In this document: positions 7,301 to 57,743 of the stretch, piece by piece
How positions within the stretch are numbered: the first letter of the stretch is position 1
Layout: every line of letters begins with the position of its first letter
Program-made: the position numbers and the translations under genes
Source of the DNA: a virus
Lineage: Duplodnaviria > Caudoviricetes
Direction: 5' to 3' (one strand)
IMG/VR virus record: IMGVR_UViG_3300012016_000004
Location: 1 to 64,000 of that record
DNA length: 64,000 nucleotides
The notes under the pieces: model-generated
Told to the model about the DNA's origin: nothing
Seen by the model: only the letters and a program-made list of their open reading frames with translations
Database searches by the model: none

Positions 7301-8851
7301 GCGCTTAGTGAACTGAATGGATTCCTGCACACGGCTGTCACGGGTCACTTCCTCTGCCTTATACTCATTGAGCTCCGTGGCGATGGAGGATGTGACCGTG
7401 GCATTCGAGAGCTGGAGCTCCGGATAGTGAGGCTTATTGACGTACTGCTTGATGCCGATGATGCGGATCAGCTCTGCTTCCGTCAAGAACTGGGTGTCCG
7501 AGAAAGAGACAATGCCTCCGAGGACAAGCCTTCCGGAGAGAACAGACCAACCAGCAGCAGCCCACCGACCGTCAAGTACGCCGTTGAATGAGAACCTGGG
7601 GTCTTCATTCTCGAACATGTACTTGACTGCCTGCTTGAACATGTCCCATGATGCGCCGGTGCGGGTCTGATTGTCGCAGATGTAGGAATCCGGCAGTGTG
7701 CATCCGAAGATAGCATACTCATCGCCGACAGCGGCCTTGAAGATGTCGTTCGGCATCGTCTGGCCGTCCAGCTCTGCTGGGACAATCTCGAACCGCCTGG
7801 TGGCATGGTCGTACTTGCTGAGGTCGAACTCCCGGCCGGCGAGCATGCCGGACTGGAAGATGACGGTCAGTGTCTCGCCCTCAATCATGTAGTTGTTATA
7901 GTCCAGAGCTGACGGGATGCTCGTATCAATGAAGTCGTACAGACCCTTGCTCGCATCTACAACCACCCATGACGAAACGGAGCCCACCCGCTTCGGGTAG
8001 CTCTCCGAGCAATCATAGCTATCCTCCGGAGCCAGTGATGAGAGTGTCTTATCGATTCTGCGGATGGACACGCCGTCATCATCCACGATGTATCTCCTGG
8101 CGCGGGATGCCACAAATCCTGGCTCTCCATCGAAGTGCTGGCCATCGTAGCTGAGTTCCTGCCCCTTCGGCAGAAGCAGTGTCTTGCTACCATATGTCGA
8201 GTAGTCAATGTTCCTCTCGCCGCCCTGAACGTACAGAATCTCAAAGGCCCGCGAGTTATCATAGTTCGACCGTCCAAGGCCGGGGATGAAGCCGTTCCCC
8301 TTTCCATAGGACAGCGCAATCGGATTCTCCTTGAACTTCTCCAGCTTGCCGAGACTGATGACCTTCCCTTCAATGGACCACTCTGTGTCAAACTCTTTCG
8401 CCACCATGTCCAGGGCCTCTGCGACCGTATTGTGGTTGAACGAAAGCAGCTTCTCGCCGGCCACGATGCAGCTGCCGACAGACCATCCGGAATCGCGCTG
8501 ATTCATGTTGGCCACGATCATCGTCAGGTACTCCTCCGGGCGTGATGCGGCCTCGAACTTTATGCGTCTGTCAACTGGATTCTTGAACCGATACAGAGAA
8601 AGTCTGCCGGAGTCAGCCTGCAATGTGAGGTCGTAGCTGAACTTCCTCGTGCCATTCTTCTTGAAGTTCGACGGCTTGAGCAAGTAATATGTCGTGCCGT
8701 CAAACACACAGTATGCGCCCACCGGGATGTTCAGATAGCCCTGGTACTCAAAGCTGAGATACAGAGCATCCTCTCCCATTATGCGCCGTGAGCGATAGGC
8801 TTTATCGTCAGGCTGAATCTCGATATACGAGCCGTTGAAATATATCTTCAT
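1304..8851 (-). CDS. Giant tail protein (baseplate hub/central fibre) with collagen-like and internal repeats
   Basis: 2515 aa directly after the Dit-like gene. N-terminus is of Bacteroidota tail-hub type; Gly-X-Y segments; repeated KAETxxQxxDP and KMNSDKV modules. Confidence 0.85.
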   Translation of the reverse strand: MKIYFNGSYIEIQPDDKAYRSRRIMGEDALYLSFEYQGYLNIPVGAYCVFDGTTYYLLKPSNFKKNGTRKFSYDLTLQADSGRLSLYRFKNPVDRRIKFEAASRPEEYLTMIVANMNQRDSGWSVGSCIVAGEKLLSFNHNTVAEALDMVAKEFDTEWSIEGKVISLGKLEKFKENPIALSYGKGNGFIPGLGRSNYDNSRAFEILYVQGGERNIDYSTYGSKTLLLPKGQELSYDGQHFDGEPGFVASRARRYIVDDDGVSIRRIDKTLSSLAPEDSYDCSESYPKRVGSVSSWVVVDASKGLYDFIDTSIPSALDYNNYMIEGETLTVIFQSGMLAGREFDLSKYDHATRRFEIVPAELDGQTMPNDIFKAAVGDEYAIFGCTLPDSYICDNQTRTGASWDMFKQAVKYMFENEDPRFSFNGVLDGRWAAAGWSVLSGRLVLGGIVSFSDTQFLTEAELIRIIGIKQYVNKPHYPELQLSNATVTSSIATELNEYKAEEVTRDSRVQESIQFTKRRWRDLQETAEMLAAAIENYSEAINPISVQTMQLIAGDESLQFRFVTSKVSPITVDSDFTILFDSVSKRLAITGGLTSGASILQHMTIGIATLSSQHDTAEYHFWDIPAFVSEYLNDTDKKYYVYAKVGKSSTTGQFILSETAIGMESVAGYYHLLLGILNSEFEGTRSFAQTYGYTEVLPGRITTDRIVASDGINYFDLQTGELNMSLPNGSQFIKFDENGVHIKGKVVIGAGSSGLAQFTEYPSLIAEIQNRTPYNILLANENAGVACRYDGTVIGALPTSAIQVFYGGSLQSGWAFSLNCTGCTATVANGVITVTGLTADNATVEVTATKTDCPTLKTTMNIIKVRGGGSGVGVQSIEEEYYLSTSPTSLGGGSWGTTVPTWVDGKYIWTRSVITYTDSSSVTTDPVCVTGGKGSTGDDGVGIAGVDVEYYLSESSSQLIGGQWSTTAPAWVNGKYMWSRTHTTYTDGDEDYSDPCCITGAKGEQGIQGPAGQDGRTTYFHVKYSPVANPTDEQMTETPSDYIGTYVDYNPVDSLVPSDYTWSRFKGEDGDQGIPGQDGEDGTTYYLHIAYANSQDGTEDFSTSVSQGKSYIGQYVDENEQDSQTPSDYNWSLIKGEDAVLYMVQPSVSVVKRTWGGTITPSTITCKKYKIVGNQAAAETTEKVLKYSIDGAAETAYSGQISINSGMEYIDFRLYDTDGTTLLDSQRILILNDASEFDVEGMENAIAALEAQMVSTQSVLEKMNSDKVFDATEKAYIRTLWENVNGLPSLDDMGANGSYISTLDIVERSGYATGKQVALSFAQNILKFNEGQDNLMFKYTGLDSFNAAYFNLRDYLRRMQLYDDGFTEGYDREYMASLFTTYYDAQEILLENSQFYYANAASQSAVQTFIEGEYASDIAAVRASIDKKAETFVQSTDPASGWTSPTDVREQHVGDIWWNNGNSTVSGVSSGATAVYRYDQSTSTYYWEETPVPKDVFDKIDGKKTIYTAIPNTAGADGKCYHKDDLWIMESGLTADLVPADAKVGDLLVASSDSTSYNKAHWSKKVRYTDDSALNTFLDGYSGNLTAIRNSIDKKAETWYQATDPSTAWTTGEDKAAHKGDIWHNTSNSTINGVKAGQDAIWSGTAWSVDETVPQEVYDKIDGKSAIYVTWNAWIVNNVSKLQLRDVFIPAEDTTQGGVTYKQNHFYRCINTNPATFAPLSYVDTATLNDFIQNTYQPAIDSLKNQIDGKAETYVQSSDPAAAWTTTEAKKEHVGDMWLNSARTAVSGIGSMKTAIYTQGGTEQSPTFSWAQQNIPNQLFDEIDGKASLYIVKPANYHAKDMWIIGPEIATADLPSECTTGDLVVATQDSVNFNKAHWAKKVKYTDDSSLTEFINGLYADTIEALQESIASTQEAIRKMNSDKVLDESEKGYIRTEWEKVNGKPGFESTGSSGSFETTLEIVAGLGYTEGEKVHLSFANYLLTFAGNKLLFKYRGMDDFKAAFYNLRSYLQSMKLYDAGSTEGFDRTIMSGMFTRYYEAQQLLLANAQKDYTSFLELWASDGYISPVEKRSLVTMKQDESQVYANLIATAALYSNASGTASQQAVYAALQAYNQAYTAFLATINYYTDSATWNDSIAIVTESGAAYSWNYITGYFSSRASLENAIDSAVKVRADDFAYLMDAMPDGASTEIGEGVVLSQVIGVKGSNNTHVVAGMTNGKVGADEVPMIFAGAQNFAGANNAKFRVYRDGSFYAGAGNLTGVLQLASATSGRFEDANIYYLPAVSSESTITLEANVKHIGKVIRMFNSGEAGTHKNYKISCQKFGVSSDGSISWSQFSYDAIVRPEEWAEFTCVKVSSSSSGTDAAWELSGRFSQQEFINQNAFGRFPLVLAMGRFVGGSTVANCSINGSIWNKSDGGNCYGTSLKNNPFIITRVSEGIYDISALSSIIPSGSMMMVCGYGYTSGHSNDYALIATVTNQYTLGDYTHFRVDVHDDTTPNEGSFNFIIFGPYWGYKLS
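2720..5075 (-). repeat. Internal A-B-B-B-A protein repeat array in the tail protein
   Basis: KMNSDKVxDxxEKxYIRTxWExVNG at ~5075 and ~3105; KAET(F/W/Y)xQxxDP...H(V/K)GD(I/M)W...DxIDGK at ~4580, ~4080 and ~3615. Boundaries approximate. Confidence 0.8.
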
Positions 8852-32216: not shown

Positions 32217-33749
32217 TTAGTCCATATCTTCTTCAATTTCCTCGACCGACAGCCCCTTGCTGTCCTTCACCGGATAGAAAGTATTGCACAACGCATCCCA
32301 CTTATCTGGCGAGCGGCCAAGCCTTTCCTTGATGTCCTCCTTCTTCTCTATGAGGATGGAGCCGGTGCTGGTAAACGACCACTTGATGGCCGTCGCTTCC
32401 TCCAAAAGCATATCATCTGGCGGCAACATGGCACCAGTCTTGTTCTTCGGATTGAGCCAGTCTCTCACACACCAATGCAGATATGCCCTCATATTGGCAA
32501 ATTTGTACTGTCCGGTTTTATCGGACAGTCCGTTGGCGCCCTCGCTGAACTTACACGAATAGGCATTCTTAATATTCAGTTCCTGGAGCCGAGAGTACAC
32601 GCCGGCGCCTTCTCCGATGGTATCAATCAAGGCCCGCGACTTCTTCTTGCTCTGATGAAGGCCGTTGATAGTCATTCCGGCAACCTTCATGTGGTCGGCT
32701 TTGCCACCCGACTGATGCACCTGGAATCTGGAAACGTAGTTGTCGTAGCGGTAGCATAAGTTGGAGCTATCACGGCCCATACCAGCCACATCAACACCAA
32801 GGTCCAGATCCTCATCCGGAATCCAGTCATCGCCCATCTCCTCCTTTTTCTCCTTCCATCTCTCCTGGGCAAGAGTGACCCACTCGTAAGGGATGAGGCA
32901 GTCTTCGGAGGCGCGAGGGAATAGCCCAAGCACCTTTACACGGAAAAGGTCATTTGGACGATACAGCCCACCTTCCCATTTGAAGTCTCCCTCGCCCTCA
33001 TTGAAGTCATCCGGGTTGTAGATAGGGGTACACCAGTTTTCAACCTTATCGGCCACCCAGCGATAGTCCACCTGGCCGGGGAAAATCATCTGCTTCCTCA
33101 CGACATTCTCTGCATTCAGAGAGTTAAGCCGGAAGTGCTTGAATCGGTCAGAGGACATGGCCTTGGCCGCATAGCCGGAAGTGATATTCGGGTTAAACAC
33201 CAGCAGCAGCCGTGAATCGCCCTGCAGGTTACCTTCTATGGCATTGTACACCGTTTCCGAGATACCGGATGCTTCCGTCACGGCGAACATGATGTGGACG
33301 GCATGGAGACCGGACCAAGACTCTGTTTCCTCCGCTGCCTTGAAGCCGGTCAGAAACCATTCCTCATACGGAGTCTTAATCTTCGAGGACTGGAGTATGC
33401 CAGGAAGGAATCCGGCCCGGCGGTAGAGCCTGGAGATTTCCGGCATCATGATGTTATACACCTGCCGGCCGGTAGGCGCAGTCATGATGACCTTCGTATT
33501 CTCAACCAGCTCTCCCTTCTTGTTGAATCTGGGGGTCAGATATAGAAAGCAGAGGCATCCGCAGGCCGAGACAAAATCCTTGCCCCTTGAGGTCCCGGAT
33601 GCCACTGCTGTCATCGGATTCGTTTGGAGGGATTCGATGATGGCTTGCTGTTCTTTGTCAAGACGAGCACCAAGCACATCCCGGACAAACTTGTTCCAGT
33701 CTGCCCGCCAAGACATCATGTATTTCAGTCCTTTCTCGTTTACCTCCAT
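32217..33749 (-). CDS. Terminase large subunit
   Basis: VASGTSRGKD Walker A, FAVTEASG Walker B, LLVFNP motif, LGVDVAGMGRD and SPDKWDAL nuclease motifs. Confidence 0.92.
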   Translation of the reverse strand: MEVNEKGLKYMMSWRADWNKFVRDVLGARLDKEQQAIIESLQTNPMTAVASGTSRGKDFVSACGCLCFLYLTPRFNKKGELVENTKVIMTAPTGRQVYNIMMPEISRLYRRAGFLPGILQSSKIKTPYEEWFLTGFKAAEETESWSGLHAVHIMFAVTEASGISETVYNAIEGNLQGDSRLLLVFNPNITSGYAAKAMSSDRFKHFRLNSLNAENVVRKQMIFPGQVDYRWVADKVENWCTPIYNPDDFNEGEGDFKWEGGLYRPNDLFRVKVLGLFPRASEDCLIPYEWVTLAQERWKEKKEEMGDDWIPDEDLDLGVDVAGMGRDSSNLCYRYDNYVSRFQVHQSGGKADHMKVAGMTINGLHQSKKKSRALIDTIGEGAGVYSRLQELNIKNAYSCKFSEGANGLSDKTGQYKFANMRAYLHWCVRDWLNPKNKTGAMLPPDDMLLEEATAIKWSFTSTGSILIEKKEDIKERLGRSPDKWDALCNTFYPVKDSKGLSVEEIEEDMD

Positions 33750-33765
33750 TTCTCATAGTCGTACT

Positions 33766-34992
33766 CTATCGGACGATTCCTCGATACAGATAGTCGCGCA
33801 GCTCCGGCAAGGTCATCTTTCCGATGCCAAGGTAGTCAAGGCTGTACTTCGATGTGGCTCTGAGGTCTTTCTCATGGAAGGCAGAACCAATGACGATCAT
33901 CGAATCAATGACCGGAGTTGGAACGCCGAACTTCGCGCCCAGCTCGCTGTAAATCTTGCATCCGACCGGAATGTCCTCCGTGATGTAACGGTGGTTGATA
34001 TTGTCCGGTCCAGTATTGCCTTCATCGCACGGCTTGTCCAGAGGGAACACCACATTGTCCCTTCCGCTGGCATCAAGGCCCATGTACTCTGCCGTGAGGA
34101 TGCTGCGCCGGGAGAAGAACTGCTCGTACTCATACTCCGGGTACTTGATACCGATAGCATCGGCAATAGCGCACTCCTCTTTGTAGAACCGGTACTGTGT
34201 TCTGCAGATGGAAGGGCAAAGGCCATGCGAGTACATGGAATAGCTGCCGGGGGCATTCCCGTACACTTCCCAATTCTCCATGCTTGAAACGCCAAGCAAT
34301 GACGCAGGGACATGGATAACCGGGTTCACATTGGAGAAACCGATGTCAAGCATCGTATCGCCGACCACCGGACCGTCCCCCTTTGTCACAGACTCCATGC
34401 ACGGTAGATAGTCCACGGAATCCATGAACGTTGCAATGTCCGTCATCGGAAGGCAAGCACCGCGAAGACTGATGGCCCGATACTTAACACCAACATGGTT
34501 GGTCCAGAATCCGGCCACCTTCTCTATCCTCGTGCCGTAAGGAGCGGAAGACCATCCTCCAACGATAACATCCTTTGTACAACCGGCTTCACGCATCAGT
34601 TTCCTGAGCAGCAAGCTCGCGTAGTTGTCCGGGAACGTGTGGATAATCATTCCGTCCTCCAGCAGCGGGACGAGTTTCCGCAGGTAGTCTTCGTGGGCAA
34701 GCGCAGGGACAGAGATGAGTATGAGCTTTGCTCCTCTCACCGCCTCGGCCATGTCGTTCGTAACGACATCAAGAAATGCACGGCCAGAACGTTCGAATCC
34801 ATACAGATTGCGCTGGATACCGTCAAGCAGGATGCCGGTGCGCTCTACATACTGGATAGACTTCGGGCTACGCGAGTACAGACGGACCTCGCGGCCGGCC
34901 AGCTTGCAGTCAGCAGCGAGTGTCTTTCCGACGGCGCCACCACCGAGTACGGCGATGGGGCAGTCTTTCAGATAGGTTAAATTCTTCATCAT
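33766..34992 (-). CDS. NAD(P)-dependent opine (octopine/nopaline-type) dehydrogenase
   Basis: IAVLGGGAVG Rossmann fold; SNVNPVIH; C-terminal GPDNINHRYITEDIPVG...FGVPTPVIDSMI. Confidence 0.85.
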   Translation of the reverse strand: MMKNLTYLKDCPIAVLGGGAVGKTLAADCKLAGREVRLYSRSPKSIQYVERTGILLDGIQRNLYGFERSGRAFLDVVTNDMAEAVRGAKLILISVPALAHEDYLRKLVPLLEDGMIIHTFPDNYASLLLRKLMREAGCTKDVIVGGWSSAPYGTRIEKVAGFWTNHVGVKYRAISLRGACLPMTDIATFMDSVDYLPCMESVTKGDGPVVGDTMLDIGFSNVNPVIHVPASLLGVSSMENWEVYGNAPGSYSMYSHGLCPSICRTQYRFYKEECAIADAIGIKYPEYEYEQFFSRRSILTAEYMGLDASGRDNVVFPLDKPCDEGNTGPDNINHRYITEDIPVGCKIYSELGAKFGVPTPVIDSMIVIGSAFHEKDLRATSKYSLDYLGIGKMTLPELRDYLYRGIVR

Positions 34993-35019
34993 AAACTTAC
35001 TTTCGTTATTTGGGTACTA

Positions 35020-35361
35020 TTATTCCGGATTATCCGGGAGTTTCTTCATCATCTCCTCGAAGGGATTCAGCTGGACCTTGTTCTCCACCGTCTCCACATA
35101 GCCACGTTCTTTACCCTTCGTCTTTAAGAAGAAGATGAGGCAGGTATCGTTCCCCGCATCTATCTTCTCTATGAGCTTGGACTCTGCCCAGTCAATCAGA
35201 GACTCGTCAACGTCCTTGAGCATCTCCGCAAGTTTCGGAAACGACTTCCTCCAATGGTAGAACTGTGTGCGCCCACATCCGAGAGCAGTGCAGGTGGCAG
35301 ACACGTTGCCACCCTTCTTCTCATACACCTTTGCAATGGTTGCAAAACTTGGTCTTTTCAT
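35020..35361 (-). CDS. Terminase small subunit-like HTH protein
   Basis: GNVSATCTALGCGRTQFYHW...IFFLKTKGKERGYVE. Confidence 0.75.
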   Translation of the reverse strand: MKRPSFATIAKVYEKKGGNVSATCTALGCGRTQFYHWRKSFPKLAEMLKDVDESLIDWAESKLIEKIDAGNDTCLIFFLKTKGKERGYVETVENKVQLNPFEEMMKKLPDNPE

Positions 35362-35372
35362 ATCTTCTCCTC

Positions 35373-36224
35373 CTATTTTGTTGCGGTCTCAACGACCTTG
35401 CGAATAAATTCATCATATTCTATCCCGGCGCATTCTTTGGCGCAACCGGCCAGGTGGTCCGTGGCGCCGAGACATGGGTACAGATTGAGGTCAATGAGCA
35501 CGTAGTCTCCGTCCAGTGTCTGACGGAAGTCTATTCTCATGTATCTCTTGGCGCCGACCGCCCAGAAAGCGGCCCGTGCATAGCGGATCAGCTTATCATC
35601 AATCAGCGGATGGCAGACATCCACCTCCTTGAACTTGAGTTCGTGAGTGAGGATGCCGGACTTACTCTCATACTCAAGTATGACCGGCCAGCAATCCGGA
35701 ACGCCAGTCTTGTAATTGGCTACGAGGCCGACGGTGCAGTCGCGCCCTTCCACAAACTCCTCGATAATGGCATGGTCATTAAGGGTGGTCTCAATCTCCA
35801 CGACCTTCTTGCGGATTGCCTCGCGAGACGTGCAGATGGAGTCCTCGTCAATACAGTTGCTATCTTCGCCATGCATCGGCTTGACGAAATAACGGCCACC
35901 GTCACAAGGCTCTATGACGGTTTCTGGGACACGAACTCCGGCCTGCCGGAGCAAACCCTTACTGATTGCCTTATCGTGCGTCAGATGCACCGTTTCCCGG
36001 CTTTCTGCCGTAGTGTATGCGCACGTCGCAACAAGCTTGTCAATGATGGTGCGGTTCCTGGTCTGAACGAGAATCCTATCGCTGGGACAGATATAGTGAA
36101 AATCATCGTCCTCCGTGGCGAAGATTCTCTTGATATTGGAGCCGAACACCCTTTCAAGGTGGGCATACCTTTCGTCCGGCATGAAGGCGCTTTCCTCGCG
36201 CCTGGTGGTTACAACGTAAATCAT
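35373..36224 (-). CDS. ATP-grasp ligase (D-Ala-D-Ala ligase-like)
   Basis: DKAISKGLL..AGVRVP, YFVKPMHGEDS, IIEEFVEGRD.TV, RIDFR, DLNLYP. Confidence 0.85.
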   Translation of the reverse strand: MIYVVTTRREESAFMPDERYAHLERVFGSNIKRIFATEDDDFHYICPSDRILVQTRNRTIIDKLVATCAYTTAESRETVHLTHDKAISKGLLRQAGVRVPETVIEPCDGGRYFVKPMHGEDSNCIDEDSICTSREAIRKKVVEIETTLNDHAIIEEFVEGRDCTVGLVANYKTGVPDCWPVILEYESKSGILTHELKFKEVDVCHPLIDDKLIRYARAAFWAVGAKRYMRIDFRQTLDGDYVLIDLNLYPCLGATDHLAGCAKECAGIEYDEFIRKVVETATK

Positions 36225-36232
36225 ACTGATAC

Positions 36233-36964
36233 CTATTTCTTTCCCGCTGATTCAAAAGCCGTCATACTATCTCCTATTTGCATCAGAGCCAGCTCCAGAA
36301 TCTTCGAGAATATGATGTTTGAGGATTTGATTTCGAGCTTCTGATTTATCTCCTTGGAGAGCTTGAGATACAGCTCCTCGTTCGGCTCGTTCTCGGCCAT
36401 GACAACGACATCGCTTTTCTTGATAGCCTCACGCAACTCCCCGACCAGTTCCTCGAAATACTGCATGGCCTTGTTATACAGAACAAGCGTGACCGTGAAG
36501 GTCTCCTTCTCCAGAGGGGATGCGATGGAACCGACATCAATGTTGCCGATTTCGTCAATGTTGATGTGGGCGAACTTCTTGAAGTCAACACTCGAAATGC
36601 TTTCGAACAATTTCTTCAAGATGCTCTTGTTGTCTGTCCCATGCAAGGAGTTGTGGGAAAGCTGGATTGCTACAATCTCATCTTTCGTCAATTCTGACTC
36701 CAGGGCATAAAGAATGCCTATCTCTGTGAAGCCCTTCTTGCGACATGCATGGACACGATGATGACCACTGATGATAGTAAACCGGCCATTCTCCCGCTTA
36801 TAGCAGGTCGGCACCGAACTTAAACCACTCCGGCCGATGTTCTCGACCAACTGATTGAAGTCATCGTCAGACATCATGTTGGCATTCAACTCGGCATCGT
36901 CTATCATGTCGATGGGTACGACCTCGTACTTCCATCGGTTTTCCACTTTATCCTTTTGCTGCAT
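36233..36964 (-). CDS. ParB/Srx-like N-terminal domain protein
   Basis: LNANMMSDDDFNQLVENIGRSG...FTIISGHHRVHA...SHNSLHG. Confidence 0.85.
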   Translation of the reverse strand: MQQKDKVENRWKYEVVPIDMIDDAELNANMMSDDDFNQLVENIGRSGLSSVPTCYKRENGRFTIISGHHRVHACRKKGFTEIGILYALESELTKDEIVAIQLSHNSLHGTDNKSILKKLFESISSVDFKKFAHINIDEIGNIDVGSIASPLEKETFTVTLVLYNKAMQYFEELVGELREAIKKSDVVVMAENEPNEELYLKLSKEINQKLEIKSSNIIFSKILELALMQIGDSMTAFESAGKK

Positions 36965-39005
36965 CGTTGACAGATTTTAAGTATGTTTTGATGATTTCCT
37001 CGTTATCGGCAAACCGGCCAAGGTGGCCCACATAGAAAAGTGAGTTCGGAGTGCATCTCTCCTTCACCTTGTTGTACAGACCACGGTACTTCATGGACAC
37101 CGGCTTCTTCGTATAGGCAATAGTGAAGACTGACTCCGCTTCCATGCGATTGAAACGGGACAGAATCTTCTTTACCTCCTTTGACAGAAGGCACATCAGC
37201 ACCAGGCGGGACAGCCGGGGAACGGCATTGTTCGTGGCGAAATCACAGAGCTGCTCCATGTCATATTCCTTCGCCGGCGATTTGGTGAAGCCAAAACCAC
37301 CAAGCAGATAGTCTCCGTACATCACGACAAAGCTGAGCCTGGGGCTTTGGAATGAGTTGACCTTATACACGAAATGCTCCTGCAGGATTCGGAAGTCAAC
37401 GGCGCACCGTCTGATAGACAGCAGCGCGGGGTCATTGATATACAGATCATCCGGAGGCACCTTGTAATCCACCTGGTTCGGAAGCTGGTCGTTCACGATG
37501 ATGGCAGACGTCTTCGGCTTCGGATGGTTGCTATAAAGATACTTCCCGAAATCCTTCGAGCCATGCCCGGTGTCGAACAAGGCAATCTTGTGAAGGTTCA
37601 TCAGATACGGCGTCTCGCTGAACACATAGAAGTTCACATCGTCCGGGACACTCTCTACCAGGCCGTCATACTCCGTTGGCTTGACATCCCAGTCTTCCAC
37701 TTCGCAGTTCCTCCGATAGATGCCGAACGTGCGCTTTGAGGTCTTATCTCCGACCAGCTGGAAAAGGATGTTCTTTTCTCCGTTAGCGAGGGCATCATGG
37801 ACCGTCCCACGAACATACCGGCACGAGGTCAGCATGTCGATGTAGAACTGGGCCTGCTCACGCATGTTTGCGATGCTCTCGTGCATCTTCTCTCGGTAAG
37901 CGGCCACTTCATCATCCTTGAACTCGTTCCCGCCTTCTATGACCTTTCTGAGCTTCGTGACGATGAGAAGGAGCGACACCTGGCGCAAAGGCGTGTTGTC
38001 ATTATACTCCTCCAACCACGCGATGTCCTTCTTGAATGTCACGGTCATCTGTCCAGTGGCCAGCAGGTACAGCAGGTGGCAGTAATTGTTCTGATTGTAG
38101 ATGACAAGCTTCGGCACCTTCTTGAACAGAGCGCTCTCAAAGCCAAACATGTTCGGATTCACGCAGCAAATCTCATCGAGGTTCAAGTCAACGAGCGCCT
38201 TGACCATCTTCTGGTTGCTGTCGATGGCTTTCGCCATGAAGCATTCCTTGGGATGGTACGGATTGCCCATGTAAAGCAGCGGAGGGATGAGAGCCGGCAT
38301 CTCCTTCGGCAGCTTCGTAAGCGCCATGAACTCCTCGTAGGAGCGGATGGACTTGAAGTCTTCTTCGGTGTGATGGATGGCGTATTCAAACATCCGGTAG
38401 GCAGACAGAACACAGTTGAAGGCCAGTTCCGGAGACTGCGTAGCATTGAAGCAGCGGAACTCAACTGTCTTCGTCTTGAACACGGCTGCTATATTGATGA
38501 GGAAACGGATGTAGCCCTTCTTACTCTGGTTCGACAGAGTGTTTTGCAGGTCTTGCATCGTCTCGCACTTCTTCACACGCTCGTAGTAACTTGGAGTGAT
38601 GGCAGGCTGGCAGTTGAACACCTTGTCATTCCAGTCACCCCAGTTGTTATGCTGGTTGATATACGGCGTCAGAAAATACGTGAAGAAGAAAACGCGCTTC
38701 AATTCTTCAACGGTCAGGTCGCCGGCGTAGATGTGGACATGCGTATCGATAGACCACTTGAGCTTGCCACCATGCTTCTTCATCTGGTCGTATAGGTAAA
38801 CGAGGTCATCCCGGTCCTTCCAACAAAGATGAAGCGGAGGGGTGTTCACCTCGCCGCCGTATTGTTTGCTTACCTGGCCGTCGGTATTGAAAATTTGCTC
38901 ATCTGGGCTCCATGAATAACCTGCAGGGAGAGAGACGCGCGTTCGATCCACATTGCACATCTCTATCTCCATTCCGAAAGTCCTCTCTGTGATTTTCAGT
39001 TCCAT
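36948..39005 (-). CDS. Amidoligase (COOH-NH2 ligase) fused to a Mom-like GNAT domain
   Basis: N-terminal TFGMEIE, GGEVNTP, THVHI, TVEFRCF; C-terminal segment aligns by eye with phage Mu Mom motifs recalled from memory. Confidence 0.7.
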   Translation of the reverse strand: MELKITERTFGMEIEMCNVDRTRVSLPAGYSWSPDEQIFNTDGQVSKQYGGEVNTPPLHLCWKDRDDLVYLYDQMKKHGGKLKWSIDTHVHIYAGDLTVEELKRVFFFTYFLTPYINQHNNWGDWNDKVFNCQPAITPSYYERVKKCETMQDLQNTLSNQSKKGYIRFLINIAAVFKTKTVEFRCFNATQSPELAFNCVLSAYRMFEYAIHHTEEDFKSIRSYEEFMALTKLPKEMPALIPPLLYMGNPYHPKECFMAKAIDSNQKMVKALVDLNLDEICCVNPNMFGFESALFKKVPKLVIYNQNNYCHLLYLLATGQMTVTFKKDIAWLEEYNDNTPLRQVSLLLIVTKLRKVIEGGNEFKDDEVAAYREKMHESIANMREQAQFYIDMLTSCRYVRGTVHDALANGEKNILFQLVGDKTSKRTFGIYRRNCEVEDWDVKPTEYDGLVESVPDDVNFYVFSETPYLMNLHKIALFDTGHGSKDFGKYLYSNHPKPKTSAIIVNDQLPNQVDYKVPPDDLYINDPALLSIRRCAVDFRILQEHFVYKVNSFQSPRLSFVVMYGDYLLGGFGFTKSPAKEYDMEQLCDFATNNAVPRLSRLVLMCLLSKEVKKILSRFNRMEAESVFTIAYTKKPVSMKYRGLYNKVKERCTPNSLFYVGHLGRFADNEEIIKTYLKSVNDAAKG

Positions 39006-39026
39006 AATCCGCAGCTAATAAAAAAG

Positions 39027-39097
39027 AGCGGAGAGACCGATTCGAACAGCCGCCTCGATGCAGGAAGCACCGCGCTCTACCACTGAGCTATCTCCGC
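39027..39097 (-). tRNA. tRNA-Gly (TCC), atypical, CCA not encoded
   Basis: GCGGAGA/TCTCCGC acceptor, U73, D-arm GCTC-AGTGGTA-GAGC, anticodon arm CGGTG-CTTCCTG-CATCG, T-arm GGCTG-TTCGAAT-CGGTC. Confidence 0.85.
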
Positions 39098-39124
39098 TTT
39101 GGTGGGGACTTCATCGTCCCCTAT

Positions 39125-39571
39125 CTAAAACAACCCGTCAAAGAGGCTTGGCTCCTCAAGTACCGGCGTTTGCATCTGTTTTGCCACCTGCTCCTCAATC
39201 TGCTTCTGGTCCGGTTCCCATTCCTTGATTTCAAGTCCGGTCTCCCTGAGCATCCAGTCGGCGAACAGTCTGCGGTGGCAGAAGTCTCCAGGCTTTTCGT
39301 AACAGAGCAGAGCGGCATCCTTGCCTTGCGACATCCTTTCGATGTCAGCGATGACCTGGGCCGGATTCAGATGGCCTACGACATCTCTGTAGTACATCTG
39401 AATATACTGCTCCCTTGTTACCTCATCCTTCATCATATACCGTTTCGGCGCGAGGTACTGGAGATGCAATCCTTGAAAGAACTTCGGCGGCCAAAGTGCG
39501 ATTCCAATCGGGACTATGCCAGCCTCTCTTAATTTGCCCTGGCGGGCGAAATAGGATGTATAAATTTCCAT
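39125..39571 (-). CDS. DUF488-family protein
   Basis: MEIYTSYFA...LAP...ALLCYEKPGDFCHRRL; probable start 39571, just after a promoter. Confidence 0.8.
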   Translation of the reverse strand: MEIYTSYFARQGKLREAGIVPIGIALWPPKFFQGLHLQYLAPKRYMMKDEVTREQYIQMYYRDVVGHLNPAQVIADIERMSQGKDAALLCYEKPGDFCHRRLFADWMLRETGLEIKEWEPDQKQIEEQVAKQMQTPVLEEPSLFDGLF

Positions 39572-39586
39572 TTCCTTTTGTATATG

Positions 39587-39628
39587 CAAATCTACAAATA
39601 ATTTTCCAAATAGTTGCAAAATGAAACG
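39587..39628 (-). promoter_or_regulatory. Promoter of modification/terminase operon with palindromic operator
   Basis: TAGATTTG (39594-39587); AGTTGCA-N3-TGAAACG (39612-39628). Confidence 0.6.
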
Positions 39629-39647
39629 CTTTTTTGCAAAAAAATCG

Positions 39648-40304
39648 TCATTTTTTGGTCTGCAACTGCACTTCTTGCGGTTCTCCATGCGGACGGTCTT
39701 TGTACAGCCACTTAATCATCTTCTGGCAAAGAATGTCAACAGCCGCCACTATCGGCTTACTCTGATTCGGATTGACATGCCGGTCACTGACAGCACTGTG
39801 GAACAGATTCATGAACCTGGAGCTGGCCTTCTCGATTGCCTGGATATCCATGTTCTTCTGATTGTACAACGTTGATGTCTTATAGCAATTCCCCCAGACA
39901 ATCTGTGCAGACTGCGCCATGATGTTTGCAATCATCAGCTCTGCACATGTCTTCTGAATGTCGAAGTCAAGGTCCTGCAGGAAATTCATTATCTGGACTT
40001 TCGCAATCATCACATCGTTGGCAATCCAGTTGTCGAAGTCATCCATCTTGTCCACTACCTCATTCTGCTCATCCAGCGTGAATGCCCGGAAAAACTGCTT
40101 GTTCAGACGGTTGTATGCATCAATCCACCTCTGCTTCCACAACTTCATCTCATGCTTGCTTTCGAGCGGTCTGACCGTTTTAAGGAATATCTGATAATTG
40201 ACATCCAGCATCAGGAACGGAAGGATGGTCTCAAGGGTATGGCCCTGCACACGTTTCATGCCGATGGAAGCGAGCCATTTATCTACCATTTCATCGTTCG
40301 TCAT
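39648..40304 (-). CDS. Hypothetical protein
   Basis: 218-aa ORF. Confidence 0.65.
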   Translation of the reverse strand: MTNDEMVDKWLASIGMKRVQGHTLETILPFLMLDVNYQIFLKTVRPLESKHEMKLWKQRWIDAYNRLNKQFFRAFTLDEQNEVVDKMDDFDNWIANDVMIAKVQIMNFLQDLDFDIQKTCAELMIANIMAQSAQIVWGNCYKTSTLYNQKNMDIQAIEKASSRFMNLFHSAVSDRHVNPNQSKPIVAAVDILCQKMIKWLYKDRPHGEPQEVQLQTKK

Positions 40305-49747: not shown

Positions 49748-49855
49748 AAACCACTTTCGTTAATTTGTTTTTTTGGTATTGTAAATCTAATCATTATTTT
49801 GGAAATATCAAAATATAATCAGCTTATTTTCAAGCATTTGCACACATATTTGCAA
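49748..49855 (-). promoter_or_regulatory. Repeated early promoter cassette, copy 4
   Basis: TAGATTTA box, tggtattgtaaatctaatcatt core (plus strand), AACGAAAGT leader. Confidence 0.65.
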
Positions 49856-51140
49856 TGCGCTGGATTCTTCCCATATTGCGGTTAACCAACCGGACAATCC
49901 GCTTGTGATAAGGACTCGAAGTGTCTCCATAGCCACGAGACTGGAGGACAATGAACTCCTTTGTGCTGATCTCGACCGTTTCAGCACGCTTTCCGTCAAC
50001 CCTCGCTGTCATCAGAAGGGTTCCGTTCTTGTAGTATTCGCAACGGAAGACGCAGTGACCGAGATGGTTTCCTTCCTCCAGGACTTCCTTGACAGAGCGC
50101 AGCGTTCTGATGGTCAGCTCGTGGTCAGTGAACTCCAGTCCGAAGTAAGGAGCCATCTTCTTGACGTAAGCCGGGTTATCTCGTTCTGCTTTGGCCAGGT
50201 CTTCCTTCTTGGTTGTCTTCTTGGCGCGTCTCGCCTGCATCTGGAAGTGAGTCCGGGCCAGGTCATCCGGGCAAAGGTAGTAGGGGCTATGAATGTCCAG
50301 CCCCAGCTCCTGCAGGTCTCCGATATAGTCGCACCACGTCCTTACATCAGTGAACTTGTACTTGTGCCTGGTGGCAACATTGATGGCCTCCCAGGGAACG
50401 TTGATGAGCTTCGAGTCGGCCCTCAGCCGTTCAACGAATAGATTGCGGTAGCCTCTCTTGAGCAGAATCTCAGAGATGGGGTCTGTCAGCACAGAGACGA
50501 TCTGGCGCCATGAGCAGACCTCGTCAGAAAGCCTCGTAAGACCTCTCTGCTTGACGGACGGCAGGAACTTGCATCCGCTGGCGATATATCCTCCGATACC
50601 ACTATACCGACGGTGCCAGCATCGAAGCTCCATCGATGACTCGAACCTCCATAGGTCGTAGTACAGATTGCTCATATTCGTCAGCTTGGCGAAGACAGTT
50701 GTCTTCCCATCCTGGCCTATCCAAATCTGACAGACCTCATCAATGAAGTCACGTTTCTGCTCCTCTCTGATTGACGTTCCGTAGAACTTGACCGGCCTGG
50801 TTCTGTGGGTGCTGACAAAGAACATCCTCTGAATCTGGAACTCGCCGGCCACATCCATCAGTTCGTAGTAATACCGGCTCTCTATTGAGTGCTTTTGCGT
50901 GTTCCTTACCGGGAGGCGCTTGTGGCAGTGCGGGCAAACTGAGCGGCCATTGTCAAGGGCCTTCTTCCATACCTGGGTATCTTCCCAAATGTGACCGCAG
51001 TCAGTACACCACGCCTCCTTCTTGGTTGCTATGATTTCGCCGTTCTTATGGAATGCTTCTTCCTTCTGCCTTGCCGTCAGAGGGCGTAGCAAGGGACGAA
51101 GCTCGATGCAACGGCGTTCTCTATCAGTGGTGGGTTTCAT
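49830..51140 (-). CDS. PcfJ-domain protein
   Basis: Zn-ribbon N-terminus; C-terminal LRSVKEVLEEGNHLGHCVF...YY...RVDGKRAETVE...QSRG. Confidence 0.85.
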   Translation of the reverse strand: MKPTTDRERRCIELRPLLRPLTARQKEEAFHKNGEIIATKKEAWCTDCGHIWEDTQVWKKALDNGRSVCPHCHKRLPVRNTQKHSIESRYYYELMDVAGEFQIQRMFFVSTHRTRPVKFYGTSIREEQKRDFIDEVCQIWIGQDGKTTVFAKLTNMSNLYYDLWRFESSMELRCWHRRYSGIGGYIASGCKFLPSVKQRGLTRLSDEVCSWRQIVSVLTDPISEILLKRGYRNLFVERLRADSKLINVPWEAINVATRHKYKFTDVRTWCDYIGDLQELGLDIHSPYYLCPDDLARTHFQMQARRAKKTTKKEDLAKAERDNPAYVKKMAPYFGLEFTDHELTIRTLRSVKEVLEEGNHLGHCVFRCEYYKNGTLLMTARVDGKRAETVEISTKEFIVLQSRGYGDTSSPYHKRIVRLVNRNMGRIQRIANMCANA

Positions 51141-56068: not shown

Positions 56069-56547
56069 CTTCCGGAACTCCCATAACCGTTGGCGCCGCG
56101 CTCCGTGGAATCCAGCTCATCAACTTCGATGAACTCGATGTCGCACGTAAAGCCGATCTTGATTTGTCCGATTCTATCTCCGACGTGATACCTGGGCATG
56201 TTGGGCATCACGTGATAGAACACCGCGCTTATCTCGCCGGTATAGCCTTCATCTATTGTTCCAGTGCAGTTCGACAGAACCATACCTGTCTTCCATACTG
56301 ATGAGCGAGGACGAAGGTCGATTGATAACCTTCCCTGGTTTACGTACACCCTATGAGATTTCGTCTCATAAGCGATGGAAGTCAGTTGCTCCTTGTCAAT
56401 CTGCAGAGCGAAACCAAGCCCATAGCGCCAAACATTCGGAGCTATTTCCTCCTCAGTGACGGCAGTCACATCATAACAGAAATCTGTCTTATTTGCTTTT
56501 GTAGGGATGACTGCATCCGGGTGCAGTCTCTTAAATTTAAGTATCAT
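56065..56547 (-). CDS. dut: dUTPase (trimeric)
   Basis: RPRSS, GTIDEGYTGEI, RIGQI, RGANGYGSSG motifs. Confidence 0.92.
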   Translation of the reverse strand: MILKFKRLHPDAVIPTKANKTDFCYDVTAVTEEEIAPNVWRYGLGFALQIDKEQLTSIAYETKSHRVYVNQGRLSIDLRPRSSVWKTGMVLSNCTGTIDEGYTGEISAVFYHVMPNMPRYHVGDRIGQIKIGFTCDIEFIEVDELDSTERGANGYGSSGR

Positions 56548-57743
56548 CTTTTATCTTCTGCTTTGAAGTTATACACTGGCTTGATGATATTCACGACGTC
56601 AACAGTCGGAGCAATACACTCGATGATTTCCTCCATCGGCTTGTAGGCCATCGGAGACTCGTCGATAGTTCCTTTGCCGACCGTGGTCGAAAAGATTCCG
56701 GCCATGGTCCGCTTGAAATCATCAACGGACAGAGACTCCTTTGCTTTAGCGCGTGACATGAGACGGCCGGCGCCATGCGGAGCAGAGTAGTTCCAGTCCG
56801 GATTGCCCTTGCCCACACAAATCAGCGAGCCGTCTCGCATGTTCATCGGGATGATGAGCTTCTCGTCAGCGTCAGCCCGGACCGCGCCTTTGCGGAGAAT
56901 CATGGCCTTCGTGTCAATGTAGTTGTGAATCGTCTCGAAGTACAGCTTCGGATTCCAGTGCATACCGGCAAAGATGAATCCGGCCATCGTCATTCGGTTC
57001 ACAGATGCATACCGCTGAACGATCTCCATGTCGTGGATGTAGTCGGCGAAGTCCTGCCCTTCCAGGTGGGCCAGCTCTTTATTGCATGCAGGTTTCTGGA
57101 GCTTCTTCAACTCAGTCTGGATGTCCTTTTCTCGGCCCTCTGCTTTCAGTTTGCGCACCAGATCATCCTTGACCTTACCAATCTCATTCAGCTTCTTATA
57201 AGCGAGGTCCTGGTAATACTTGCAGACCTGCACTCCGAGGTTTCTTGAGCCGGAATGAATGACAAGGTAATACTTCCCAGTCTTCTCGTCAATATCCAGC
57301 TCTATGAAGTGATTCCCACCACCGAGCGAGCCGAGAGAAAGGGATGCTCTCTCCAAGTCCACATGCTTTGCGCAGCGAAGTAATTCCAGCTGCGGAAACT
57401 TAGCAATCGGGAAGTCATGGACATTGAATCCGGACGGGATACCGGTCTTGATGAGATCGTCCAAGAAGGCCAAATCCGGATGTATTCTTGACCCTAACTC
57501 GGCAACATACATCCCGCATCCGATGTCCACTCCAACAAGGTTCGGCGTGACCTTGCCATGCAGTGTCATCGTGGTGCCAATCGTGCATCCCGCGCCGGCG
57601 TGGGCATCAGGCATGATGCGGATGGTGGATTCTTTGTACGGCTCGTAGTTGGCCAGCGCCTTCACCTGGTCATACGCCTCATATTCGAAGGTCTTGGCAA
57701 ACACCTTTACGACCGACCCATTTTCGCGTTTAATCTCTATCAT
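56544..57743 (-). CDS. rtcB: RtcB RNA ligase
   Basis: MPDAHAG, GVDIGCG, GGGNHF, IHSGSR, HNY, SAPHGAGR, DESPMAYK. Confidence 0.95.
   Translation of the reverse strand: MIEIKRENGSVVKVFAKTFEYEAYDQVKALANYEPYKESTIRIMPDAHAGAGCTIGTTMTLHGKVTPNLVGVDIGCGMYVAELGSRIHPDLAFLDDLIKTGIPSGFNVHDFPIAKFPQLELLRCAKHVDLERASLSLGSLGGGNHFIELDIDEKTGKYYLVIHSGSRNLGVQVCKYYQDLAYKKLNEIGKVKDDLVRKLKAEGREKDIQTELKKLQKPACNKELAHLEGQDFADYIHDMEIVQRYASVNRMTMAGFIFAGMHWNPKLYFETIHNYIDTKAMILRKGAVRADADEKLIIPMNMRDGSLICVGKGNPDWNYSAPHGAGRLMSRAKAKESLSVDDFKRTMAGIFSTTVGKGTIDESPMAYKPMEEIIECIAPTVDVVNIIKPVYNFKAEDKR

Follow-up and report, generated by a model that had tools for sequence, protein, structure and literature searches.

The Mom protein of phage Mu modifies the N6 position of adenine in double-stranded DNA late in infection (PMC13219725). 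It uses Gly-tRNA-Gly on double-stranded DNA and accepts all Gly isoacceptors, but not glycine carried on tRNA-Ala (Silva et al. 2026, PMC13219725); the donor to which the initial annotation of the locus described below had appealed is a published one. Staphylococci possess a non-proteogenic tRNA-Gly that is charged by the normal GlyRS, fits EF-Tu and the ribosome poorly and feeds the Fem transferases, and a TGC T-loop marks this poor EF-Tu binder (PMC7826273). Elsewhere, the targets of tRNA-dependent GNATs are peptidoglycan precursors, lipids, and proteins (PMC13219725, Fig. 5 legend; PMC7826273). In the post-replicative thymidine hypermodification clusters of phages, DNA bases receive groups derived from amino acids, and the tailoring enzymes are combinatorial (Lee et al. 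2021, PMC8989533); amidoligase domains are untested companions in these clusters (PMC8989533).

The locus analyzed here belongs to a rumen phage and lies in the window, a stretch of 64,000 nt (positions 1 to 64,000 of the IMG/VR record IMGVR_UViG_3300012016_000004), just ahead of the DNA-packaging genes. The explanation to which we give slightly better than even chances is a late, packaging-linked module in which a GNAT enzyme would move glycine from Gly-tRNA-Gly onto a base of the phage's double-stranded DNA, where it would then be elaborated. The system is without a published description. It had been read initially as a tRNA-Gly-dependent DNA hypermodification operon, a reading that was partly supported: the GNAT fold, the conservation of the cluster and the donor of Mom hold, but membership in the Mom family does not.

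Like Mom, the C-terminal part of the window's central protein has a GNAT fold, and Mom is its best or near-best solved match. Mom takes glycine whatever the anticodon, and the window's GNAT family is tied to tRNA-Gly genes of varying anticodon. In contrast, Mom is a single-domain protein with an essential HTH-like insertion that draws on host tRNA, whereas the window's GNAT, which does not belong to the Mom family by sequence, is fused to a Dam-like and an amidoligase domain. Unlike Mom, the window system also has an obligate ParB-like neighbour and a DUF488 gene, often with its own tRNA, and the ligases and dehydrogenase beside its GNAT imply further chemistry. The thymidine hypermodification clusters resemble the locus as multi-enzyme, natural-product-like clusters with tailoring enzymes, but they begin at 5-hydroxymethyl-dU with a DNA kinase and aGPT-Pplase enzymes, and no tRNA is used.

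Organization of the locus

All genes named in the initial annotation were found on the minus strand, in the order DUF488-N3a, tRNA-Gly(UCC), a 685-aa fusion protein, ParB-like protein, Ddl-like ATP-grasp, TerS, opine dehydrogenase, and TerL, followed by the portal gene. Spacings calculated from the coordinates were 27, 20, -17 (overlap), 8, 11, 27, and 16 nt, which matches the tight packing (gaps of 8-27 nt or overlaps) described before. An A+T-rich spacer of 76 nt with two TTGCAA boxes (39572-39647, minus strand, by sequence reading) is a plausible putative promoter of the operon, or possibly an operator. While the previously proposed promoter at ~39590 is compatible with this composition, a scan for the sigma-70 consensus returned no site there or elsewhere in the spacer.

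The DUF488-N3a gene (39125-39571, minus strand) matched PF22751 with 35.3 bits (cut-off 27) and phrog_2450 with an E-value of 4e-31. Its longest reading frame starts at 39688; the start was set at the alternative ATG at 39571 (MEIYTSYF), giving about 148 aa, because the relatives measure 132-149 aa and this N-terminus fits them. The gene lies upstream of the fusion gene in nearly all relatives, and gp65 of Mycobacterium phage Jeon, two genes before the tRNA-Gly of that phage, is a weak DUF488-N3a match. A 2023 paper from the Aravind laboratory reportedly proposed that the DUF488/DUF4326 clade acts on ribose-linked phosphates and on RNA or DNA termini, and the gene of this operon might likewise work at the end of an RNA or DNA.

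Domains of the fusion protein

The fusion gene (36948-39005, minus strand) had been described as an amidoligase joined to a GNAT. Both domains were recovered, but the protein is not built of two parts, as a third domain, DAM-like-phage2, lies between them. The N-terminal Amidoligase_2 domain (residues ~1-225; 38331-39005) matched PF12224 with 51.6 bits (cut-off 22); all 24 cluster representatives, with identities as low as 23%, share its residues E13, E15, H91, R167, E182, and R184. The middle domain (residues ~226-500; 37506-38330) matched PF22556 (E 2.8e-33; model pLDDT 91) and has E. coli Dam and DpnM as best solved matches (E 1e-3, TM 0.40). It holds few conserved residues, and the PPTY stretch kept in the Dam-like domain of the two-domain relatives, including those of actinophages, is absent from it. 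The middle domain is thus probably degenerate and no longer a methylase. Since it lacks motif stretches that its relatives keep, base binding by this domain is putative.

The C-terminal domain (residues ~520-685; 36951-37448) matched GNAT-phage-like PF22559 (E 1.7e-29; model pLDDT 90). Mu Mom (8bv8) was the best VIA match to its structure (Z 10.7, rmsd 3.1 over 135 residues, 16% identity) and ranked 3 in Foldseek, with a lead over ordinary, CoA-using GNATs of less than one Z unit, which amounts to a tie with other GNATs. The claim of a Mom/GNAT-like domain therefore stands for the fold, for which Mom leads the solved matches or comes close to doing so, and not for the sequence family: the domain gave no match to PF25680, and hhalign against Mu Mom returned a probability of 0.2%. 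Residues G569, D588, S637, K639, Y640, R641, and G642 are invariant. The stretch after strand 4, DFxTNNxVPRLSKL, is conserved, and no R/Q-x-x-G-x-G/A CoA loop was seen there by reading of the alignment. In relatives, the GNAT domain rarely occurs without a Dam-like domain fused to it.

The tRNA-Gly and its linkage to the GNAT gene

The tRNA-Gly(UCC) (39026-39097, minus strand) was called by ARAGORN and scored 52.1 bits with the Rfam tRNA model (cut-off 29). No second tRNA was found in the whole 72-kb virus record. CCA is not encoded, and the anticodon loop reads CUUCCUG with U37; the tRNA of the 84% relative has A33 besides U37. The cloverleaf is normal and the D-loop (GG) and T-loop (TTC) are canonical, so the tRNA might still read GGA/GGG, codons that account for 35% of Gly codons in the phage. 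Its acceptor stem, GCGGAGA/UCUCCGC with U73, is common to tRNAs of relatives with other anticodons. Across the Gly-type tRNAs the GCG start and the CGC-U end are kept while the anticodons drift through UCC, ACC, CCC, GCC, and one ACG variant, with 6- and 8-nt loops occurring with UCC. An ACC anticodon is unusual in bacteria. A TGC T-loop occurred in 18 of 57 distinct Gly-type sequences, 16 of which also lacked GG in the D-loop. These relatives' tRNAs resemble the staphylococcal tRNA-Gly in that loop, whereas the window tRNA keeps the canonical loops and is odd in its U37; the staphylococcal system further differs in its acceptor, a peptidoglycan precursor, and its Fem-type enzymes. By these features, the tRNA-Gly genes of the window and its relatives look to be under selection for charging rather than decoding.

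The strongest evidence is comparative. At 172 loci, Gly-type tRNAs on the strand of the gene were counted in the 2.5 kb upstream of it, and 147 of 177 upstream tRNA calls were Gly-type. Such a tRNA preceded 94 of 113 three-domain loci. A set of 80 loci in genomes of many phyla gave 27 tRNA calls, each on the strand of the gene and 26 of them Gly-type; across five host phyla, a tRNA adjoining this gene family is nearly always a Gly tRNA. Both close (84%) and distant (47%) relatives have the fusion gene directly preceded by one or two tRNA-Gly genes. Two-domain Dam-like/GNAT genes are likewise preceded by a tRNA-Gly, at a distance of 13-69 nt, both in Jeon (annotated gene 67/68) and at loci in Gleimia, Anaerolineaceae, two Oscillospiraceae, and Muribaculaceae genomes. 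The succession of tRNA-Gly and GNAT recurs independently in unrelated lineages. The expectation that homologous clusters keep the tRNA and the enzymes was borne out, unrelated phage lineages included, but the tRNA is not obligatory: a 73%-identical relative, 15 of 113 three-domain loci and the majority of two-domain loci lack it. In a few relatives, the tRNAs at its position are exclusively of the Met, Asn, Lys, Arg, or Ser type.

Partner genes

The ParB/Srx-like gene (36233-36964, minus strand) overlaps the fusion gene by 17 nt. It matched phrog_7405 (E 1.7e-63) and ParB-like PHROGs (E about 1e-11), with Pfam ParB_N at 16.9 bits, under the cut-off. Its family has an invariant G-x-H-R box. In every lineage and locus checked, a member of it adjoins and follows the GNAT gene; Jeon (gp69) and Gordonia phage Soos (gp27) are among these. 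The D-Ala-D-Ala-ligase-like ATP-grasp (35373-36224, minus strand; PF07478, 38.1 bits, cut-off 24; PDB Ddl matches, E 5e-5) was found by tblastn at the same position in 80 of 80 IMG/VR relatives. The small HTH protein (35020-35361, minus strand), likely the terminase small subunit, matched phrog_309 (E 4e-6), with HTH Pfam matches below cut-off, and lies directly before TerL in many relatives. TerL itself (32217-33749, minus strand; phrog_2, E 4.6e-24), to which the TerL of relatives is 62-76% identical, ends the run. The position of the module before TerS/TerL recurs in unrelated phages.

Between TerS and TerL lies the opine (octopine/nopaline-type) dehydrogenase (33766-34992, minus strand), with 110.8 bits to PF02317 and a match to PDB 1bg6, N-(1-D-carboxylethyl)-L-norvaline dehydrogenase (E 3e-23). 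In relatives the Octopine_DH gene is placed elsewhere in the module, 3 kb upstream at one locus (L003) and between the tRNA and the fusion gene at three (L038, L021, and L033), and in one variable slot it alternates with an alanine-racemase/PLP-like enzyme. One relative carries an extra, classic N-terminal acetyltransferase. Such variation is the pattern of a predicted tailoring pathway.

Proposed mechanism and alternative explanations

What was observed of the module is its genes, their folds and conserved residues, and the linkage of tRNA-Gly, GNAT, ParB, and DUF488 in genomes. In the glycine-transfer explanation, the phage-supplied tRNA-Gly would serve as glycine carrier and would be charged by the host GlyRS, given that it retains C35/C36 and the identity elements of the acceptor stem. 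The GNAT core would take glycine from the charged tRNA, like Mu Mom, and the acceptor would most likely be a base in the double-stranded DNA of the phage itself, with adenine N6 as best guess. The Dam-like domain, its methylase activity probably lost, would supply binding of DNA or of a flipped base, and the ParB-like protein, an obligate partner with an intact NTP-binding box, probably brings the enzyme onto DNA or keeps it there. In this Bacteroidota-phage version, the fused amidoligase, the Ddl-like ATP-grasp and a tailoring enzyme that can be exchanged would then build on the glycyl group. The tailoring enzyme of the window, the opine dehydrogenase, would reductively join the free amine to a 2-keto acid, and a peptide- or opine-like adduct would result. 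We infer the donor, as well as the number and order of later steps, and read from domain content that DNA is the target, which base is modified, and that glycylation leads on to ligation and reductive alkylation.

The usual substrates of amidoligases, ATP-grasp ligases, and opine dehydrogenases are small molecules or peptides, and Fem transferases, PacB, and L/F-transferase use aminoacyl-tRNA outside the ribosome. Gly-tRNA-Gly might similarly be used here on a small molecule, a peptide, or a protein of the packaging/head or host, which we consider unlikely. Amidoligase_2, the Ddl-like ATP-grasp, the opine dehydrogenase, and the alanine-racemase-like enzyme are classic amino-acid/peptide enzymes, the acceptors of other tRNA-dependent GNATs point the same way, and so does the loss of motif stretches from the window's Dam-like domain. 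Against such an acceptor speak the near-constant fusion of GNAT to a Dam-like domain, the ParB-like gene with intact NTP box that always follows the GNAT gene, the placement among packaging genes, and the solved matches, E. coli Dam for the middle domain and Mom for the GNAT. A target in RNA, either the tRNA itself or a host RNA, with the Dam-like domain binding RNA adenine and DUF488 acting on an RNA end, is very unlikely: while some GNATs act on aminoacyl-tRNA (TacT on Gly-tRNA-Gly) and the phage has a gene for an RtcB RNA ligase, this gene belongs to a different module at a distance of 17 kb, the ParB-like partners and Dam-like folds speak for DNA, and the tRNA is dispensable in many loci. 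The proposed action of the DUF488/DUF4326 clade on ribose-linked phosphates and RNA/DNA termini, in the part of PMC9503650 that cites Aravind-lab work, would fit an RNA target.

It is scarcely probable that the tRNA is an ordinary translation helper located here by chance and that the GNAT uses acyl-CoA. Phages often carry tRNAs, other tRNAs occupy the same spot in some relatives, and the window tRNA, normal in cloverleaf, D-loop, and T-loop, could read GGA/GGG. However, the preference for Gly next to this gene family across five host phyla argues against chance, as do the drift of anticodons (ACC and the 6- and 8-nt loops included) over a kept acceptor stem and the TGC T-loops that many relatives share with a non-ribosomal tRNA-Gly. 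The conserved DFxTNNxVPRLSKL in place of a CoA loop speaks against acyl-CoA.

Two-domain relatives in actinophages

Among the closest known systems are the two-domain proteins Jeon gp68 and Soos gp26 (DAM-like-phage1 + GNAT-phage-like), whose Dam-like and GNAT parts are homologous to those of the window protein (hhalign E 2.9e-52). The same ParB-like family comes next in order in both phages, and in Jeon a tRNA-Gly(UCC) lies directly upstream. In contrast to the window, amidoligase, ATP-grasp, and opine dehydrogenase were not seen with the actinophage two-domain proteins. These proteins are annotated as hypothetical or as "methyltransferase".

Glycine tRNA genes ahead of the fusion gene

The main result of the analysis is the link between tRNA-Gly and the gene of a 685-aa fusion protein (36948-39005, minus strand). 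The tRNA-Gly(UCC) that precedes this gene scored 52.1 bits by Rfam and is the sole tRNA of the whole record. Relatives of 84% identity likewise carry tRNA-Gly(UCC), 25 nt before the gene, and 47% relatives have two tRNA-Gly genes there, with ACC and CCC anticodons. Across the 172 surveyed loci, 177 tRNAs were called upstream; 147 of them are Gly-type, and 13 of the others are tRNA-Cys accompanying a Gly-type tRNA. In the 80 genome loci, Gly-type tRNAs made up 26 of the 27 calls, and every call lay on the strand of the gene.

The order of tRNA-Gly followed by a Dam-like/GNAT gene recurred, with gaps of 13-69 nt, in lineages that have no further genes in common with the window phage, including Gleimia europaea, an Anaerolineaceae MAG, two Oscillospiraceae MAGs, and Muribaculaceae and Bacteroidales MAGs. 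In Mycobacterium phage Jeon, gene 67 is annotated as tRNA-Gly and gene 68 encodes DAM-like-phage1 plus GNAT; an Rfam tRNA search of this record was blank and was disregarded, as ARAGORN and the record's annotation both show the tRNA. Glycine accounts for a small share of tRNA genes in general, so at least seven independent coincidences would be very unlikely.

The co-occurrence of tRNA and enzyme genes in related phages, which the initial annotation proposed to check, held for 94 of 113 three-domain loci (Gly-type, at most 2.5 kb upstream, same strand), but not for the 73% relative, where DUF488 abuts the fusion gene and no tRNA lies within 18 kb, nor for most loci of the two-domain form (Dam-like and GNAT only), which are without a Gly-type tRNA. 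After dereplication at 90% identity, a Gly-type tRNA was present in only 27 of 91 clusters, and four loci had solely Met, Asn, Lys, Arg or Ser tRNAs at the position. Such incomplete linkage fits a donor that can also be supplied by the host, as for Mu.

Other tRNA-like features were seen at the related loci. A family of tRNA-like genes whose acceptor stem starts with TAGCAGT lies upstream of the fusion gene, at a distance of about 1.2-1.7 kb, in L053, L054, L056, L061 and L029, with differing anticodons (Asn GTT, Ile GAT, Ser GCT, Arg CCT); tRNA-Gly is absent in L053 and L054, and the other three have an additional Gly-type tRNA. L033 and L034, also without tRNA-Gly, carry ordinary-looking Met or Asn tRNAs. 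In Gordonia phage Soos (L096, 3819-3893), a 75-nt stretch before gp26 reads GCGCGAC...GUCGCGC-U-CCA, with a hairpin loop holding CCC. It occupies the tRNA-Gly position of other lineages and is followed by an intrinsic-terminator-like hairpin; neither ARAGORN nor Rfam called a tRNA in it, and its fold z-score was only -1.9.

Charging and decoding features of the phage tRNAs

Judged by their sequences, the phage tRNAs look built for charging, not for decoding. Bacterial GlyRS identity elements are G1:C72, C2:G71, G3:C70 and U73; nearly all of these tRNAs start with GCG and end with CGC-U, and C35 and C36 are also retained. The first anticodon base among these is U, A, C or G, and several hold UCC within anticodon loops of 6 or 8 nt. 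At L017, an ACC-type copy 199-126 nt upstream of the fusion gene has an ACG anticodon, one base changed, and was called tRNA-Arg by ARAGORN; this copy is a case of anticodon drift on an unchanged body. A conserved acceptor stem with drifting anticodons matches the acceptor-end recognition suggested by the authors of work on phage Mu Mom, which accepts all three E. coli Gly isoacceptors and rejects glycine on tRNA-Ala (PMC13219725).

The non-proteogenic tRNA-Gly of staphylococci, which binds EF-Tu poorly and feeds Fem transferases, has TGC or TGT in place of TTC as its hallmark (PMC7826273). A TGC T-loop of this type was present in 18 of 57 distinct Gly-type sequences, 16 of which were also without GG in the D-loop. 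In contrast, the mark is absent from the window's tRNA, with T-loop GTTCGAAT and GG in the D-loop. This tRNA is the least deviant one, with canonical D- and T-loops but with U37 and with G-U pairs at 50-64 and 52-62; the tRNA of the 84% relative has, in addition, A33. Because its D- and T-loops are canonical, the window's tRNA could still decode GGA and GGG, which account for 35% of the Gly codons counted in 26 genes of the phage.

Organisation of the gene run

The gene run extends from 39688 to 32217 on the minus strand in the order DUF488-N3a, tRNA-Gly(UCC), 685-aa fusion, ParB-like, Ddl-like ATP-grasp, HTH/TerS, Octopine_DH, TerL and portal, and the 72-kb IMG/VR record from which the window derives is rated complete by CheckV. 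The small HTH protein is of the terminase-small-subunit type. Coordinates from DUF488 onward gave spacings of 27, 20, -17, 8, 11, 27 and 16 nt, confirming the tight packing described in the initial annotation. The DUF488 start most likely lies at 39571 rather than 39688, because the relatives' proteins are 132-149 aa long. This start leaves a 76-nt A+T-rich spacer (39572-39647, minus strand) with two TTGCAA boxes, whose sequence, TTGCAAAAAAGCGTTTCATTTTGCAA, is a near-palindrome. The promoter previously placed at about 39590 is plausible in view of this spacer but unproven, because a sigma-70 consensus scan gave no site there.

DUF488-N3a matched PF22751 with 35.3 bits (cut-off 27), and its CYEKPGDFCHR stretch is common to the relatives. 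A 2023 paper from the Aravind laboratory reportedly proposed that the DUF488 clade acts on ribose-linked phosphates and nucleic-acid ends. DUF488 is placed in a rhodanese-phosphatase clade, with the same proposed action on ribose-linked phosphates and nucleic-acid ends (PMC9503650).

In RNA-labelled libraries of three studies, short contigs matched parts of the operon at 95-100% identity (window 33608-33891, 34130-34491, 36031-36328, 36821-37219, 37729-39032 and 39136-39566), and include stretches of the genes for DUF488, the fusion and the opine dehydrogenase, with a depth of 14 for the DUF488 piece. They are a weak hint of operon transcription only, because DNA carry-over is possible.

Domains of the fusion protein

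The protein described as an amidoligase+GNAT fusion contains both of these domains, but it has three parts, with a Dam-like domain in between. Residues 1-225 matched Amidoligase_2 (PF12224, glutamine-synthetase-like COOH-NH2 ligases; 51.6 bits, cut-off 22). In this part, E13, E15, H91, R167, E182 and R184 do not vary among 24 cluster representatives, the most distant of which are 23% identical; by analogy with the family, a catalytic role is assumed for these residues. The following part, about residues 226-500, matched DAM-like-phage2 (PF22556; 115.7 bits, cut-off 27), and residues ~520-685 matched GNAT-phage-like (PF22559; 103.2 bits, cut-off 27). This succession of Dam-like and then GNAT was repeated in more than 30 cluster representatives. 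A phmmer search of the fusion against PDB sequences gave no match at E 1.

The model of the Dam-like domain had a pLDDT of 91, and its top solved Foldseek matches were E. coli Dam and DpnM (E 1e-3, probability 0.99, TM 0.40), a weak match that is consistent with a predicted Dam-like fold. Invariant residues are nearly absent from this domain. By reading of the alignments, VNPxxF follows its first strand, and neither an FxGxG SAM-binding loop nor a (D/N)PP(Y/F) motif was found at the expected places; in a profile alignment, the PPTY stretch of the two-domain relatives had no counterpart in it. Because the SAM loop and the catalytic motif are absent, the middle domain was not filed as an active methylase, and it is read as a putative DNA- or base-binding scaffold.

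The GNAT model (pLDDT 90) has a clear GNAT fold. The Mom structure 8bv8 was ranked first for it by VIA (Z 10.7, rmsd 3.1, 135 residues, 16% identity), with dozens of CoA-using GNATs within one Z unit, and third by Foldseek. No sequence comparison placed the domain in the Mom family: the Mom profile PF25680, which gave 253 bits for Mu Mom itself, had no match in the fusion at E 0.01, BLASTP gave no significant match (E 1.8), and hhalign of the fusion-family profile against Mu Mom was not significant (probability 0.2%). The likeness to Mom expected by the initial annotation is therefore limited to fold and context. Mom has an essential HTH-like insertion and the residues R111, S124, D149 and R151. 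The invariant residues of the window's GNAT family form a set of their own (D588, S637, K639, Y640 and R641), and the secondary-structure list of the GNAT model contains no obvious inserted helix pair.

ParB-like protein, ligase and exchangeable enzymes

The ParB-like protein scored 16.9 bits with PF02195, below the cut-off of 26.3, and matched PHROG ParB-like families at E ~1e-11. It (phrog_7405) aligns with the gene 3' of GNAT in distant Bacteroidota-type loci, with Jeon gp69 and with Soos gp27, the latter annotated as a ParB-like nuclease. Invariant across the aligned lineages are N27, A28, M31, G67-x-H69-R70 and an LSxNS box. The G67-x-H69-R70 stretch fits G-x-x-R, the pattern of the nucleotide-binding box in ParB/Srx folds (bioRxiv 10.1101/2025.10.10.680097). 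When a complex was predicted between the ParB-like protein and the Dam-like/GNAT part, the score was 0.01, compared with a mark of 0.32; this is evidence neither for nor against an interaction. As a separate observation, a DUF4417 gene follows TerS in L005 (12003-12779), L006 and L007, relatives without opine dehydrogenase, and DUF4417 is reported to be often fused to ParB folds in phage proteins (bioRxiv 10.1101/2025.10.10.680097).

The ATP-grasp protein is of the D-Ala-D-Ala ligase C-terminal type (PF07478; 38.1 bits, cut-off 24), matches PDB Ddl chains at E 5e-5, and was found by tblastn at the equivalent position in 80 of 80 close relatives and also in a 36% relative. The opine dehydrogenase matched PF02317 (110.8 bits), NAD-binding domains and 1bg6 (E 3e-23 over residues 13-399). 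Its position varies: it fills the TerS-TerL gap in the window, lies 3 kb upstream in 84% relatives, and in most 45% relatives follows the tRNA and precedes the fusion gene (E 1e-27 to 1e-29). In two sublineages, the slot before the fusion holds in its place a PLP protein with weak matches to alanine racemase/D-serine dehydratase-like proteins (L079, 5130-5990; L092, 2897-3745). Together with the Ddl-like ligase, this protein hints at D-amino-acid chemistry. Phage thymidine-hypermodification clusters likewise combine a constant core with an interchangeable position for tailoring enzymes, and amidoligases were noted in them as untested companions (PMC8989533).

Distribution of related loci

The three-domain architecture gave 734 matches in 90%-identity clusters and about 30 full-length representatives in 50%-identity clusters, and relatives of the fusion are encoded on more than 480 IMG/VR contigs. 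The alignment of the fusion matched 185 places in bacterial and archaeal genomes of many phyla. Three-domain matches in bacterial genomes were almost all from Bacteroidota (Prevotella, Alistipes, Muribaculaceae, Paludibacteraceae, Capnocytophaga and Dysgonomonas), and many of these loci are plausibly prophages. At least ten studies yielded contigs of the window phage itself, from the gut metagenomes of cattle, sheep, goats and other sources.

The TerL proteins of 80 IMG/VR relatives are 62-76% identical to that of the window, and the gene order in these relatives was DUF488, tRNA(s), Octopine_DH where present, fusion, ParB-like, ATP-grasp, TerS and TerL. Distant members (23-36% identity, some with another terminase) had DUF488-N3a upstream and the ParB-like gene directly downstream. 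The two-domain form, about 430-500 aa long, occurs in actinophages and in genomes of many phyla and its homology to the fusion spans the two domains (hhalign E 2.9e-52). With a 12-kb query, megablast gave no match among GenBank phages, and tblastn of the fusion matched the GNAT part only, in ten mycobacteriophage records.

Further variation was seen among the relatives. In P0143 (873 aa), a classic acetyltransferase domain is fused N-terminal to the amidoligase, and in P0182 (770 aa), an HNH endonuclease, possibly a homing element, lies inside the DAM-like-phage1 domain. A PcfJ gene occurs just upstream of DUF488 in L002 and L092.

Discussion

The folds, the conserved residues, the linkage of GNAT to tRNA-Gly, ParB-like and DUF488 genes, and the position before the packaging genes are observed, and a candidate mechanism can be outlined around them. 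The phage tRNA would be charged by the host GlyRS, and the GNAT domain would transfer the glycine to a nucleobase amine of double-stranded DNA held by the Dam-like domain. We infer Gly-tRNA-Gly as the donor and adenine N6 of double-stranded DNA as the acceptor, the target base being a guess by analogy with Mom. The ParB-like protein might recruit or clamp the enzyme on DNA late in infection. The ATP-grasp protein and the fused amidoligase could then elongate the free amine of the glycyl group, or a carboxylate derived from that amine, and the opine dehydrogenase could reductively couple an amine to a 2-keto acid; the formation of an N-carboxyethyl product from glycine and pyruvate is known opine chemistry.

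This mechanism of DNA modification is modestly favoured. A further-reaching reading, possible but less likely than not, is a widespread modular phage pathway of DNA hypermodification in the style of natural products. In it, a private non-ribosomal tRNA-Gly would prime a chain of peptide or opine type on a base of the DNA, ATP-dependent ligases and exchangeable tailoring enzymes (opine dehydrogenase, PLP enzyme, acetyltransferase) would lengthen this chain, and a ParB-like loader would couple the process to packaging. An acceptor other than DNA, that is, a peptide, a small molecule or a protein, appears unlikely, and RNA as the target very unlikely. That the tRNA is merely translational and the GNAT domain uses CoA is most improbable, although for this phage the window's tRNA could still read GGA/GGG.

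Under the favoured DNA-modification pathway, the module would modify DNA in the tRNA-dependent manner of Mom, with a new architecture, tRNAs of its own and additional chemistry. To our knowledge, Mom has until now been the lone example of DNA modified from a charged tRNA. The module suggests that such modification is widespread, that private tRNA-Gly carriers have evolved in phages for this chemistry, and that larger adducts are built from the glycyl group. If true, it would provide a new class of hypermodified bases, probably blocking restriction enzymes, which could affect the sequencing and cloning of gut phage DNA, as well as a second natural case of translation-excluded tRNAs, after the staphylococcal cell-wall tRNAs, and new enzymes for site-directed DNA derivatisation. 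The literature search found no paper on the gene set or on PF22559, PF22556, PF22555 and PF22751; a computational mention may exist, and the domains have already been delineated by someone, since the Pfam families exist. The two-domain core is directly testable because cultured carriers exist (Mycobacterium phage Jeon and Gordonia phage Soos).

Elsewhere in the window, a 2515-aa tail protein (1304-8851, minus strand) gave weak Prophage_tail and BppU-like matches, and a PcfJ-like protein is encoded at 49830-51140 (minus strand). An RtcB-type RNA ligase (56544-57743, minus strand; PF01139, E 6e-61) lies in the early or replication region and may have a tRNA-repair function, which might be relevant to a phage relying on a tRNA co-substrate.
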